DNA from: Minisyncoccota bacterium
GTDB taxonomy: Bacteria; Patescibacteriota; Minisyncoccia; Phycocordibacterales; UBA9973
NCBI GenBank assembly: GCA_041674285.1
Contig: JBAYVZ010000005.1
Span: forward strand, 5,176 to 69,175
Direction of reading: 5' to 3'
DNA: 64,000 nucleotides
Positions 34,702-37,232 of the stretch are shown in pieces. Positions within the stretch are counted from its first letter, which is position 1, and the number at the start of each line of letters is the position of its first letter. The notes beneath the pieces are model-generated. The model saw nothing but the letters and a program-made list of their open reading frames with translations. It had not been told where the DNA came from and made no database searches. A program made the position numbers and the translations under genes.

Positions 34702-34821
34702 ATCCCGTTAGAGATGTGTTGTTAATAAAATAAAATATAAGTTAAAATTAAGTATAAAATAATATTACATAATAAAAATTAATAAGATACGGAAATGTAA
34801 ACATTTCCTATCTCTAATGGG
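34702..34821 (+). repeat. start-codon-abutting structured element (family 1), copy 5
   Basis: Arms ATCCCGTTAGAGAT (34702-34715) / ATCTCTAATGGGAT (34810-34823, one G-U wobble). Inner hairpin GATACGGAAATGT-AAA-CATTTCCTATC. The upstream stop lies 11 nt before the arm. Confidence 0.85.
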
Positions 34822-35979
34822 ATGGACAAAACAGAACTACAAAAACAAATAGCAGAATACTTTTCAAAGCTACCACCAGAAGCTGCTGCTATTTTTAGTA
34901 GCATGGCCTGGATAGATCAGACAGAAGAAATAGGCAATAGGTATAATCTGACAGAGGACCAATTAAAAGCCCTAATAACAGAGACTAGCCTGGCTCTCCT
35001 AGGAGTCATACACTTGAATCAATATGAGGATATATTAATCCAAGAACTCGCTCTCCCTAAAGAAAAGATAGCACCCATGATATCTGAAATAGATAGGGAA
35101 GTATTCGCATCTATCCGCCCAGCCCTAGAAAATACATTTGAATCAAACATAGAGAACATAGCAAAAAACAAATACGGTGGAGCTCAGAATATGGACGACA
35201 GATTCAAAGGGTTGCCACCTGCTGTCCAAGAGGCTATAACAAATTCCAACTACAAAAAGAACCTATACAATATAGCCAGTAAGTACAAATTGAACATGCC
35301 GAGCATGAGCACCCTAGATGAAGTAACCACAAAAGTCATGCTAGGGATAATCCCCAGTGAAAACTACAAAAATGAACTGTCAGCAGGGGTCCAAGCTTCG
35401 CCAGAAAATATAGATCTCATAGTATCAGAAGTCAATGAACAGGTTTTTAAAAACATAAGGTCATTCCTAATTCAAAATACAAAAAGAGATGACGCTGAAA
35501 AAGAAAAAATAGAGATACCGATACCTCCATATAAGAAATCAAATATCCCGACACCCCCATACAAGAAAACAGAGCCATTCGTTCCAGTAAATTTACCAAT
35601 CGCAGAATTTGAAAAAAAAGAGACGGATGATGGCATGAAAATATCGGGGATAGAGATACTAGCAGACGAGAATACAGAAGAAAAAGTAGACGAAGAAAAA
35701 GTTACAATAAAAGAAGACAATATAATGGTAAAATCTGGGGTCTCGGTAGTAGAAGAGGGTAACAATCCCCAGGAATCACACATTATACCGAGCAAGGAAA
35801 CACAAAAATCAGTATTGTACGGTATAGAGAACCCCCAATCAACAAAATCAATACTAAATATGAAGCTCCAGGGAGCAACATCAAGTGGAGTATCCAAAAG
35901 CAATCAACCAATATCAAATATACCTCCACAAAACACAACAAAGTCAGTGATTCATGATCCATATCATGAGCAAATATAA
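34822..35979 (+). CDS. hypothetical protein of the T4SS-like locus
   Basis: 385 aa with a short internal repeat IPIPPYKKSNIPTPPYKKTEP. No recognised domain. Confidence 0.55.
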   Translation: MDKTELQKQIAEYFSKLPPEAAAIFSSMAWIDQTEEIGNRYNLTEDQLKALITETSLALLGVIHLNQYEDILIQELALPKEKIAPMISEIDREVFASIRPALENTFESNIENIAKNKYGGAQNMDDRFKGLPPAVQEAITNSNYKKNLYNIASKYKLNMPSMSTLDEVTTKVMLGIIPSENYKNELSAGVQASPENIDLIVSEVNEQVFKNIRSFLIQNTKRDDAEKEKIEIPIPPYKKSNIPTPPYKKTEPFVPVNLPIAEFEKKETDDGMKISGIEILADENTEEKVDEEKVTIKEDNIMVKSGVSVVEEGNNPQESHIIPSKETQKSVLYGIENPQSTKSILNMKLQGATSSGVSKSNQPISNIPPQNTTKSVIHDPYHEQI

Positions 35980-35994
35980 ACACCAATCATATAC

Positions 35995-36408
35995 ATGCAA
36001 TTCAAAGTCCCACAATTCATAGATATAGAAGATAAATTATTTGGACCTTTTACGTTCAAACAATTCTCATACCTAGCTGGGGGAGCGGGTATTGTATTTT
36101 TAATATACAAAACGATGCCATTATGGATAGGCATATTCCTGATTATCCCCATTGCGGGGTTAGTATTGGCTTTAGTTTTTTACAAGATAAACAATCAGCC
36201 ATTCATATATTATCTCCAGGCAGCGATAACATATGCACTCGGAAATAAACTATATATATGGAAACAGAGAATCCAAGAAAAAAATGAAGAATCAGAAGAA
36301 GAAATAAAACAAACCTCTGTCGTACCTAAAATGTCTCAAAGTAAATTAAAAGATATTGCATGGGGACTCGACATGAAAGAAGAAGATAACTCAAAAAACC
36401 TCTCGTAG
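35995..36408 (+). CDS. PrgI/VirB3-like small two-TM protein
   Basis: MQFKVPQFIDIEDKLFGPFTFKQFSYLAGGAGIVFLIYK... followed by a second helix. I recall this pattern from PrgI-family proteins next to VirB4 in Gram-positive-type and CPR T4SS loci. Confidence 0.62.
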   Translation: MQFKVPQFIDIEDKLFGPFTFKQFSYLAGGAGIVFLIYKTMPLWIGIFLIIPIAGLVLALVFYKINNQPFIYYLQAAITYALGNKLYIWKQRIQEKNEESEEEIKQTSVVPKMSQSKLKDIAWGLDMKEEDNSKNLS

Positions 36409-36420
36409 TAGAGGTTTTTT
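36393..36420 (+). terminator. intrinsic terminator overlapping the stop codon
   Basis: AAAAAACCTCT-CGTAGT-AGAGGTTTTTT. The TAG stop at 36406-36408 lies in the loop. Confidence 0.65.
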
Positions 36421-36441
36421 TGCACTAAAAATAAAAATTGA

Positions 36442-36450
36442 TGATATAAT
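36442..36450 (+). promoter_or_regulatory. extended -10 box TGATATAAT, 6 nt before ATG 36457
   Basis: TGATATAAT at 36442-36450, ATG at 36457. Confidence 0.55.
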
Positions 36451-36456
36451 ATAAAA

Positions 36457-37110
36457 ATGGCAATCAATGCAGAAAAATCTCAAGAATTTGTACCAATAAA
36501 AGAAATCCGTGATGGAGTGATCATCCTGAAAGATGGGGGATATCGGGCAATACTGATAGCTTCTTCTATAAACCTATCTCTAAAATCTAGCGATGAGCAG
36601 GTAGCAATAATAAATCAATTCCAAACATTCCTAAATAGTCTGGATTTTTCCGTGGAAATAGTAGTGCAGTCTCGAAGATTAGATATCCGTCCGTATTTAA
36701 TGACACTAGAAGACAGGATGAAGAACCAAGTAGAGCCACTACTTAAGATACAGACCAAGGAATACATAGACTTCATAAGATCTTTTACTGACGAGGTAAA
36801 CATAATGACAAAGTCATTCTTTATCGTAATCCCATACAGCTCCACAATAATAAAACCTACAGAGGGAATATTTGATAAACTAACTGGCAGTAGAGTAGGT
36901 ATGTCTGCTCCTGCAGAGCTTTCCAAAAAAGAAACAGAGATGGCTGAATTCGAAGAGACCAGATCTCAGCTAGATCAGCGTGTGAGCGTAGTAGCATCAG
37001 GACTTTCAGGAATGGGAATTAGAACTTCTCAATTAAAAACAGAGGAAGTAGTAGAATTATTTTATAAAACATTTAATCCTGGCGATATAAGCCAAGGAAT
37101 GAAATTATAA
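36457..37110 (+). CDS. hypothetical protein of the T4SS-like locus
   Basis: 217 aa soluble-looking ORF sitting between the PrgI-like and VirB4 genes. Confidence 0.55.
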   Translation: MAINAEKSQEFVPIKEIRDGVIILKDGGYRAILIASSINLSLKSSDEQVAIINQFQTFLNSLDFSVEIVVQSRRLDIRPYLMTLEDRMKNQVEPLLKIQTKEYIDFIRSFTDEVNIMTKSFFIVIPYSSTIIKPTEGIFDKLTGSRVGMSAPAELSKKETEMAEFEETRSQLDQRVSVVASGLSGMGIRTSQLKTEEVVELFYKTFNPGDISQGMKL

Positions 37111-37116
37111 TATGGG

Positions 37117-37232
37117 TCCCGTTAGAAGCCGCGATCACGATTTATAAATAAAAAATATGAAAAATAATTATCGAAACATTAAAAATATAACTGAGCAAAG
37201 TCGCGAAACGATCGCGATCTGCTTCTAACGGG
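37117..37232 (+). repeat. start-codon-abutting structured element (family 1), copy 6
   Basis: Arms TCCCGTTAGAAGC (37117-37129) / GCTTCTAACGGGA (37221-37233). An extra pairing CGCGATC / GATCGCG lies next to the arms. The upstream stop is 6 nt before the arm. Confidence 0.8.

Follow-up and report, generated by a model that had tools for sequence, protein, structure and literature searches.

The window analysed here is a 64-kb stretch of DNA from a Minisyncoccota bacterium, and genes read by eye from the translations of its open reading frames (ORFs) identify it as the dnaA / rpmH-rnpA-yidD-yidC region of a chromosome, which is assigned to the Paceibacterota within the Patescibacteria, or candidate phyla radiation (CPR). 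It includes a locus resembling a type IV secretion system (T4SS), and the subject of this work is a short structured repeat element of which two copies, numbered 5 and 6, lie within that locus. Both copies are found immediately 5' of a start codon, namely that of a gene for a protein of 385 amino acids (aa) at 34822 and that of a VirB4-like ATPase gene at 37233. This position had been described in a first-pass annotation of the DNA, and it is borne out by the sequence, as are the structured nature of both copies, which is seen in their folds, and a TATAAT-type -10 box 6 nt before the starts at 26786, 31613, 36457 and 39104. All results rest on assembled metagenomes and were obtained by sequence comparison and folding. 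The features of the two copies and of their sub-operons are listed below, where P1 and P2 are the two helices of the element and uORF stands for a small upstream ORF.

31598-31606, + strand: TGATATAAT, probable promoter of the sub-operon with copy 5, whose GTG (31613) follows after 6 nt
34688-34690, + strand: TAG stop of a 1025-aa ORF, 7 nt before the upstream start-codon copy
34698-34702, + strand: upstream ATGGA copy of the host start, direct repeat of 34822-34826
34698-34733, + strand: uORF1 of copy 5, MDPVRDVLLIK and stop, from the upstream ATG copy
34703-34821, + strand: copy 5, before the 385-aa gene; terminal T (34703) plus 118 nt (34704-34821), nuclease-less, local-P2-hairpin class
34704-34715, + strand: P1 5' arm of copy 5 (fold), CCCGTTAGAGAT
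34791-34808, + strand: P2 hairpin of copy 5, GGAAATG-TAAA-CATTTCC, a collapsed form of the long-range P2 of the full-length element
34810-34821, + strand: P1 3' arm of copy 5, ATCTCTAATGGG, with one G·U pair; holds a TAA 4 nt before the host ATG
34822-35979, + strand: host gene of copy 5, 385 aa, no Pfam match
36393-36420, strand not assigned: terminator-like hairpin separating the two sub-operons
36442-36450, + strand: TGATATAAT, probable promoter of the sub-operon with copy 6, which would start leaderless at the ATG that follows after 6 nt (36457)
37108-37110, + strand: TAA stop of a 217-aa TraC-like ORF, 1 nt before the upstream start-codon copy
37112-37116, + strand: upstream ATGGG copy of the VirB4 start, direct repeat of 37233-37237
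37112-37147, + strand: uORF1 of copy 6, MGPVRSRDHDL and stop, from the upstream ATG copy
37117-37232, + strand: copy 6, before the VirB4-like gene; terminal T (37117) plus 115 nt (37118-37232), nuclease-less, continuous P1-P2 helix class
37118-37136, + strand: 5' strand of copy 6 (fold), P1 CCCGTTAGAAGC and P2 CGCGATC
37157-37228, + strand: uORF2 of copy 6, MKNNYRNIKNITEQSRETIAICF and stop, ending at the TAA of the arm 4 nt before the VirB4 ATG
37210-37232, + strand: 3' strand of copy 6 (fold), P2 GATCGCG, a 4-nt bulge ATCT, then P1 GCTTCTAACGGG
37233-39068, + strand: VirB4-like ATPase, 611 aa; Pfam TraG P-loop/AAA_10/DUF87

At the starts 26786, 31613 and 36457 the -10 box reads TGATATAAT, at 39104 it reads CATATAAT, and in each case 6 nt separate it from the start codon; the genes of the locus that start at this distance from a -10 box are probably leaderless. 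The 385-aa gene and VirB4 are the second genes of their sub-operons, and both copies are operon-internal. According to the first-pass annotation, the element would serve the locus as one of two alternative start-codon architectures with which its sub-operons begin. Since both genes are internal and the elements are insertions, the locus does not choose between two start architectures: the orthologous starts are empty, ATGGA or ATGGG is doubled around the elements, and a full-length form that encodes a nuclease exists. Judged by these comparisons, the elements are recent passengers at the junctions before the 385-aa gene and VirB4. The locus had also been proposed as a natural test bed, and this idea survives in another shape, in which the comparison is no longer between genes behind an element and genes behind a promoter but between filled and empty alleles of the same start codon in near-identical genomes.

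Copies 5 and 6 belong to a set of nine in the window. The arm CCCGTTAGA, with at most one mismatch, matches 18 times against 8.1 ± 3.1 in shuffled sequences, none of 100 shuffles reaching 18, and these matches pair up into nine elements, all nine of which abut the ATG of a real ORF. The general form of a copy is (T)CCCGTTAGA-RRY … RYY-TCTAACGGG-(A)TG. Short copies measure about 116 nt, carry no nuclease ORF and have AT-rich, diverse interiors that fall into at least two classes, with either a local P2 hairpin (as copy 5) or a continuous P1-P2 helix with a 4-nt bulge (as copy 6); interior identity between copies is about 59%, and several classes occur in one genome. The copies other than 5 and 6, together with one neighbouring gene, are the following.

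1781-1896, + strand: copy before an NYN-domain gene (arm pairing, Pfam)
7937-8054, + strand: copy before a phosphoglucose isomerase-like (PGI-like) gene (arm pairing, Pfam)
11619-11735, + strand: copy before a 293-aa gene, with ATGGA on either side (arm pairing, flank comparison)
15595-15658, - strand: truncated 64-nt copy before a TrmB-like regulator gene
23271-23388, + strand: copy before a UvrD-like helicase gene, with TATAAT 7 nt before the upstream ATG (arm pairing, Pfam)
43116-43583, - strand: gene downstream of yidC, jag by position only and not from Pfam
43584-43699, - strand: copy before the gene downstream of yidC, with ATGGAT on either side and arms CCCGTATGAAAT/ATTTCATACGGG
44808-44923, - strand: copy before yidD, with ACTTGT as left flank (arm pairing)

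In the last of these copies (44916-44929, - strand), the rnpA ORF terminates within the element. Its last codons and stop (…TTG TCC CGT TAG) come from the ACTTGT flank and the 5' arm, and the insertion has therefore remodelled the C-terminus of the RNase P protein.

The evidence that such copies are insertions is clearest at VirB4. Relatives whose VirB4 proteins are 97, 95, 93 and 91% identical have no element, and their site reads …GAAATTATAAT|ATGGGA… (also given as AAATTATAAT|ATGGGA). At the same place the window has the empty-site sequence plus T[CCCG…115 nt…CGGG]ATGGG, with exactly one extra ATGGG; thus, locus L213, whose VirB4 is 97% identical, reads 'gaaattataatATGGGAATA' where the window reads 'gaaattataatATGGGT[CCCG…CGGG]ATGGGAATT'. 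In the element-free relatives VirB4 is coupled to the preceding stop as TAA-T-ATG. Because near-identical relatives are empty at the VirB4 start, copy 6 is young, and the filled and empty alleles, so far as they record its history, show that it arose after the divergence from the relatives with a 97% identical VirB4. Overall, about 65 of 70 VirB4 loci from metagenomes lack the element, and all of the 30 orthologous starts found for the 385-aa gene are empty. In the VirB4 tree, filled sites are scattered (the window with L129, L131, L136 and L162), and the full-length copy of L121 has the empty L125 as its sister. From this pattern, the same VirB4 start codon is one that has been hit several times or cleanly vacated. 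Neither the empty sites of the 91-97% identical relatives nor the scatter of the filled ones over the tree agrees with a single ancient insertion at VirB4 with co-evolving repeats, and this reading was rejected. The interior identity among copies at the VirB4 site (0.69 against a background of 0.59) is explained by related element pools.

This presence/absence polymorphism at orthologous sites is a property of transposable elements of the miniature inverted-repeat kind (MITEs), and the flanks point in the same direction. Among 141 element copies, positions -6 to -4 read ATG in 107 and GTG in 4, and in 101 of the 111 copies having this upstream start codon the two following nucleotides are those that follow the downstream ATG. 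ATGNN is thus repeated on either side, as in the target-site duplications of MITEs, and the element also has their terminal inverted repeats, which here consist of T-CCCGTTAGA and three covarying base pairs at both ends. Position -1 is a T in 137 of the 141 copies. Copies with C…G ends are followed by GTG and those with T…A ends by ATG, and therefore the first base of the downstream start codon behaves as a part of the element; one may describe the repeat either as ATGNN or, with T…A ends, as TGNN. In the same way, the first base (A) of the start codon of the 385-aa gene may be supplied by the element end. In a flank-unbiased subset, made of the window and the loci fetched via the VirB4 protein, ATG follows the element at 16 of 16 places and the upstream ATG is kept at 9 of the 16. 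Tandem or nested arrays, with one element within another, were observed at 5473-5713 of L079 and also in L014, L017, L109, L084 and L115, and in these arrays the downstream ATGAAT of one element serves as the upstream flank of the next.

A longer relative with the same ends was found as well. Before the VirB4 start of L121, the same arms flank an ORF of 83 aa. This full-length form measures 274-276 bp, has the same 12-bp complementary ends (T-CCCGTTAGA-RRY … RYY-TCTAACGGG-A) and contains this single gene; six independent loci have it, in front of different genes, among them the PrgI-like and the TraC-like gene of the same T4SS locus in other genomes. The ORF encodes a GIY-YIG protein (Pfam PF01541, E = 4e-16), a nuclease of a homing family. 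Its nearest entries in the PDB are the UPF0213 proteins 1zg2 (E = 2e-7) and 1ywl, which are placed in a minimal, prokaryotic Slx1-like lineage related to structure-specific nucleases (PMC1564403). By these matches the nuclease is of the minimal Slx1/UPF0213 type and not of the I-TevI lineage, and it possesses neither a DNA-binding nor a strand-transfer domain. Of the approximately 275 nt, the ORF occupies 252. Its start codon comes 5 nt behind the 12-nt P1 5' arm, and it is ended by the TAA within TCTAACGGG, 4 nt before the ATG of the host gene. The full-length element of L204 still has TACAAT-N6-ATGGA upstream; it therefore occupies a leaderless start, and its transcription would be driven by the promoter of the host. 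More than 1,000 clusters matched in a protein search with the nuclease; among the 120 listed, identity to the query is 81-100%, and the named ones are all Patescibacteria metagenome-assembled genomes (MAGs). Many database entries (P0122, P0125-P0129 and others) have 92 aa instead of 83-84 aa, presumably since gene callers start nine codons upstream, inside or before the 5' arm. A larger autonomous element of the DDE type was also looked for, starting from the solitary arms of the fetched loci, which led to no more than two elements of 190-275 bp and to no transposase. The longer form with its GIY-YIG ORF is a candidate autonomous partner of the short copies.

All seven copies that were folded pair both ends into the 12-bp helix P1, with minimum free energies of -29 to -40 kcal/mol and z-scores of -3.5 to -5.2, none of 200 shuffles folding as well. 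Two further pairs, U(-1)-A(+1) and R(-2)-U(+2), carry P1 into the host start codon, and the second helix P2 adjoins its 3' strand. Positions 10-12 of P1 vary between A-T, G-C and C-G and are Watson-Crick pairs in 91-96%, and the arms of the copy at 43584-43699 bear a double compensatory change. For six full-length copies, RNAalifold gave P1 and a long-range P2 in which codons 22-25 of the nuclease ORF (…ACGGAAGCGCC…) pair with its C-terminal codons (…GGCGCTTCC…), two P2 pairs being compensated, in L197. Local P2 hairpins number 66 and have 49 distinct stem sequences. The covariation of P1 and P2 therefore indicates that the pairing is selected. Moreover, the hairpin of short copies (ACGG-AAATG-TAAA-CATTT-CC) is the full-length P2 helix minus about 150 intervening nt; as a collapsed long-range P2, it identifies the short copies as internal-deletion derivatives of the full-length form. 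The P2 hairpin also reads …GGAAAUG UAA ACAUUUCC…, with an AUG directly followed by UAA, at 34795-34800 and in the P2 loops of the copies at 11619, 23271, 43584 and 44808; this 'start-stop' may be a matter of chance, since other copies do not have it.

Searches for known RNA families were negative. In Rfam 15 no match overlaps the elements, short or full-length, even at E up to 10, and neither a tRNA (ARAGORN) nor an Rfam family at the gathering score was found anywhere in the 64-kb window. A self-splicing intron of group I or II was rejected, there being no Rfam catalytic core and the full-length element being mostly ORF; a tRNA-like structure was rejected for want of an ARAGORN match, and inspection by eye gave no core of a hammerhead, twister or pistol ribozyme.

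The insertions share a very short target. ATG followed by two purines (ATG-RR) is found at 87% of element-bearing genes versus 38% of the other ORF starts in the same loci (p = 5e-28). In L044 (- strand, approximately 2324-2444 of the reversed locus) an element occupies an internal Met codon of lysS, 10 codons before the end, where the native tail of the lysyl-tRNA synthetase, MRPKPHGPRGDS and stop, is replaced by MRPVRNRDRA and stop. The target is therefore the sequence and not the start codon as such, and presumably selection removes hits other than start codons. Homing endonuclease genes have one long cognate target of 14-40 bp and spread only between alleles of one locus; here dozens of unrelated genes share only ATGRR, and the element is not of that kind. 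The orientation is that of the host gene in 99 (93%) of 106 classifiable copies. In function the downstream genes are unrelated (topA, murG, ruvX, glyS, secG, rplI, rplQ, pheT and others) and their native N-termini begin at that ATG. A copy at 1125-1233 of L018 lies in a 5' untranslated region, between a TTGACA-N17-TATAAT promoter and a membrane-protein ORF starting with TTG, and not at a start codon. An exact-pattern scan with one genome per species gave more than 119 loci, nearly all of them in Patescibacteria (Nomura-, Kaiser-, Wolfe-, Yanofsky-, Jorgensen- and Campbellbacteria, Paceibacterota and MAGs labelled Saccharibacteria); among the matches listed, a few come from Omnitrophota, Planctomycetota and Deltaproteobacteria MAGs.

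How the genes behind the elements could be translated was approached through the 3' end of the element. The bases before the ATG, CTCTAACGGG, include no TANNNT at the right distance, and a promoter scan of this end gave no signal above shuffles; on these grounds a leaderless host mRNA made from a promoter inside the 3' end was rejected. A GGAG/GAGG Shine-Dalgarno (SD) motif lies upstream of none of the 44 long ORFs found in the ORF scan of the window, many genes of which have a TATAAT-like box about 6 nt before the start codon or a stop-start coupling such as TAAtATG. The TAA of the arm ends an ORF of 15 codons or more in 62 of the 141 copies, versus 4 and 23 in the other two frames. In copy 6 the order is the TAA of the TraC-like gene, 1 nt, uORF1 (37112-37147), 9 nt, uORF2 (37157-37228), 4 nt and the VirB4 ATG, which would make a complete relay, and uORF2 may act in termination-reinitiation.

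In other hosts the 3' end looks different. In the arm sub-families AGACCT/AGGTCT and AGAACT/AGTTCT, which occur mostly in Omnitrophota, Planctomycetota and Deltaproteobacteria MAGs, GGAGG, GAGG or GGAG lies 9-14 nt before the host ATG (L008, L009, L028, L059, L073, L080 and L104 have such ends). GGAG or GAGG at this distance was seen in 7 of the 9 copies of these two sub-families versus 1 of the 132 other copies, and the share of ORFs with an SD is 27% where the host carries the larger (CCT-arm) sub-family and 8% across the remaining host loci. The signals of the host itself, namely its promoters, the stop codons upstream and, in some hosts, an SD, are still found before the upstream copy of the start codon. 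The uORF that begins there has 6-46 codons, of which only M-X-P-V-R, imposed by the arm, is conserved. An in-frame peptide insertion, like that of Rickettsia palindromic elements (RPE), was rejected, because element lengths are not multiples of three (frames 55/31/21) and the uORF is not conserved. Taken together, the start-codon base, the stop 4 nt upstream, the SD in SD-using hosts and the closing of P1 exactly at the AUG lead us to regard the 3' end of the element as a portable initiation region.

From all these observations, copies 5 and 6 are very likely nuclease-less, MITE-like derivatives of a small mobile DNA element. The putative GIY-YIG nuclease would mobilise both forms, probably by acting on a hairpin or cruciform made by the element ends. 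Insertion would prefer ATG-purine-purine, selection would clear the hits elsewhere, and the element would be tolerated through its portable initiation region. There, the start codon would be rebuilt with its first base from the last base of the element, the stop 4 nt upstream would permit termination-reinitiation from the nuclease ORF or from small ORFs, and the sub-families in SD-using hosts would carry an SD sequence. P1 would pack the insert away and leave the host AUG at the foot of the helix, beside the original ribosome-loading site. In the SD-free genome of the window, the 385-aa gene and VirB4 would be translated from the rebuilt AUG, in the case of VirB4 maybe through the relay of two small ORFs.

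A broader proposal, which we hold tentatively and with slightly less than even confidence, is that of a new superfamily of prokaryotic transposable elements. Their sole protein would be an 83-residue Slx1-like GIY-YIG nuclease that acts on the hairpin or cruciform ends of its own element; they would home to start codons and be harmless by rebuilding the initiation site (start-codon base, coupling stop, and SD where the host needs it). Nuclease-less derivatives would stand at about one gene start in six in some Patescibacteria genomes, and, in an organism that does without SD sequences, the AUG that ribosomes must find would lie at the foot of a 14-bp helix.

Several observations weigh against this picture of mobility and translation. 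Pairing at the foot of P1 in the fold takes in the A and U of the host AUG, and this alone should hinder initiation; copy 5 has only uORF1, with no small ORF ending at the TAA of the arm. The selected pairing could act in DNA, as a hairpin or cruciform substrate of the nuclease, in RNA or in both; the sense-strand ratio of G·U to A·C is 16:9, 12:10 and 19:3 in three helix sets, a clear excess in one class among copies that are not independent. The duplication is not of fixed length, being mostly 5 nt but sometimes 4, 6 or 7, the upstream ATG is missing in 21-44% of copies, and ACTTG(T/G) recurs as left flank, instead of the upstream ATGNN, at several loci that are unrelated (L136 compared with the empty L133). 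Furthermore, no GIY-YIG gene is present in the 64-kb window, so that its copies could be mobilised only in trans, from another part of the genome. Finally, a putative nuclease of 83 aa without known strand-transfer activity would be unusual as the sole mobility protein, and it could be a passenger.

The passenger possibility, in which a hairpin element of about 116 nt is moved by some other enzyme and has captured the GIY-YIG gene inside it, draws on the excess of nuclease-less copies, which far outnumber the full-length ones, on the window being free of nuclease genes and on the missing strand-transfer domain. Yet the six independent full-length loci share one architecture in which the ORF is interlocked with the arms, starting 5 nt after one and stopping in the other, codons 22-25 and the C-terminal codons of this very ORF make up P2, and the P2 hairpin of short copies is its collapsed form. 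Capture is thus rather unlikely.

Another proposal concerns translation and is compatible with a mobile origin. Ribosomes would load at the upstream AUG copy, which is 5'-terminal or coupled, and hop or shunt across the foot of P1 to the identical AUGNN, leaving the insert untranslated. The matched AUGNN on both sides of the foot of a 12-14-bp helix in 101 of 111 copies resemble the take-off and landing sites of bypassing, the host promoters, stops and some SD sequences remain before the upstream copy, and none of the 44 window ORFs has an SD. However, the copies without an upstream start codon (21-44%), which nevertheless precede essential-type genes, imply that hopping or shunting is not required, and the matching NN is explained equally well by recent independent insertions. 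In addition, the stop that follows the take-off codon in bypassing is absent (the next codons are NNU CCC GUU AGA), the uORF is not conserved, and SD-using hosts place the SD for direct initiation at the downstream AUG. Such a transfer is therefore improbable as the way in which these genes are read.

The insert could also be removed at the RNA level, if the P1-P2 helix (about 22 bp stacked) were cut by RNase III or another nuclease that frees an mRNA with a very short leader, in the manner of rRNA intervening sequences and of the Correia elements of Neisseria. The length and geometry of the helix fit this view. In parallel, CPR rRNA genes hold GIY-YIG-encoding insertions 'not similar to either intron' as well as short ORF-less ones (PMC11270868), and insertions with intron-like sequences and coding regions are described as removed from rRNA transcripts (PMC11270868, introduction). 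Against it, the fetched loci included no rRNA gene for comparison with these insertions, no known ribozyme or processing motif was detected in the element and a cut inside P1 would not yield a 5'-AUG, all of which makes processing improbable.

A dedicated, host-encoded 5' RNA device acting in cis (riboswitch, thermosensor or translation enhancer) in place of a leaderless promoter would fit an element that always abuts the AUG, folds stably (z -3.5 to -5.2) with covarying P1 and P2 and is co-oriented with its gene in 93% of classifiable copies, but it is highly improbable given the presence/absence differences among genomes with 91-97% identical VirB4, the duplicated host ATGNN, interiors that at about 59% identity and with several classes per genome have no conserved pocket of the riboswitch kind, functionally unrelated downstream genes that make up no consistent regulon, the nuclease-encoding full-length form, the copy inside the 3' end of lysS and the lack of an Rfam match at E up to 10.

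If the mobile-element reading holds, an approximately 83-aa nuclease in an element of about 275 bp would be among the smallest autonomous mobile elements of cells. Phase-exact insertion at start codons with rebuilding of the codon would represent an unusual route to neutrality in genomes with almost no intergenic DNA, and such elements can reach about 15% of the gene starts in a genome of approximately 1 Mb or less. T4SS genes were reported to be essential for epibiotic growth in Saccharibacteria (bioRxiv 10.1101/2025.01.22.634366). Pairs of filled and empty alleles, including those at the VirB4 start, thus offer a natural experiment on SD-independent and leaderless initiation in Patescibacteria. 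The copies also confound gene callers, as in the 92-aa calls of the 83-aa nuclease, and screens for intergenic motifs, in which they resemble conserved 5' untranslated RNAs.

The window contains further repeats. Two related inverted-repeat elements of about 125 nt each, with arms containing CCTTAAAAAAGATA / CCCTAAAAAAGATA, lie at 4421-4544, preceding the gene at 4555, and at 7786-7915, just upstream of the element copy at 7937, and they may constitute a second short-repeat family. A different palindromic element at 44494-44598 (- strand), between yidD and yidC, has perfectly complementary 19-nt arms, ATTCCCCTCTTGAGGGGTG / CACCCCTCAAGAGGGGAAT, 67 nt apart, and an intergenic inverted repeat at 56313-56465 has 26-nt arms that are 88% complementary and 101 nt apart.

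In full-text literature searches and in Rfam, no description was found of these arms, of start-codon targeting or of an element combining GIY-YIG and inverted repeats in Patescibacteria, and we know of no insertion-sequence family with this mobility module. Several known systems nevertheless resemble parts of it. The order of the core sites in the integron attC consensus is RYYYAAC … GTTRRRY on the cassette top strand; the element has the opposite order, GTTAGAG … CTCTAAC, and an attC site was rejected. In the split ribosome-binding sites of T4 genes 38 and 25, a hairpin of about 20 nt between the loading signal and the AUG brings the SD close. They provide a possible 'works like' model for P1, although here the insert has 115-275 nt and the genome of the window is without SD. 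Pararetrovirus shunting and T4 gene 60 bypassing are the analogues of a ribosomal hop or shunt.

Concerning mobility, GIY-YIG homing endonuclease genes (I-TevI, Seg) and the T4 mobE and gene 60 cassette are likewise selfish, centred on a GIY-YIG or HNH nuclease and of low damage to the host, and in mobE/gene 60 an untranslated insert with matched codons on its two sides moves together with the nuclease gene. In contrast, the nuclease described here is a minimal Slx1/UPF0213 type without a DNA-binding domain, the sites are hundreds of unrelated ones sharing ATGRR, the element has inverted-repeat ends and a flanking duplication, and bypassing is not required. IS200/IS605 insertion sequences and their short derivatives (PATEs) are also very small, with a tiny single-domain nuclease, covarying sub-terminal hairpins, a short target and a strong orientation bias. 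However, they rely on an HUH Y1 transposase and have no terminal inverted repeats or duplication, whereas this element has a GIY-YIG ORF, paired ends and a duplication, and it does not belong among them. RPEs are similarly short palindromic repeats tolerated in or near genes of reduced genomes, but they are inserted in frame and translated, unlike this element, which lies outside the host ORF. The CPR rRNA-gene insertions are of the same phylum and nuclease superfamily, of similar sizes and not intron-like (PMC11270868). Their sites are rRNA helices instead of start codons, and by description only they may be a second habitat of the same family.

The strongest likeness is to bacterial MITEs, such as the Correia/NEMIS elements of Neisseria, the enterobacterial ERIC and the pneumococcal RUP. 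These are also non-coding, of about 100-150 bp, with terminal inverted repeats, a short duplication and many copies; they are co-transcribed, and their long hairpin is able to affect the expression of the downstream gene. What distinguishes the present element is the phase-exact insertion at start codons, where the duplicated sequence is the start codon itself and the element end gives its first base, a candidate autonomous partner that encodes a GIY-YIG nuclease and not a DDE transposase, and the strong covariation of its helix positions. As its ends, flanks and full-length relative indicate, the element is in form a MITE with a candidate autonomous partner and, by analogy, its closest working analogues are transcribed hairpin MITEs such as the Correia elements.

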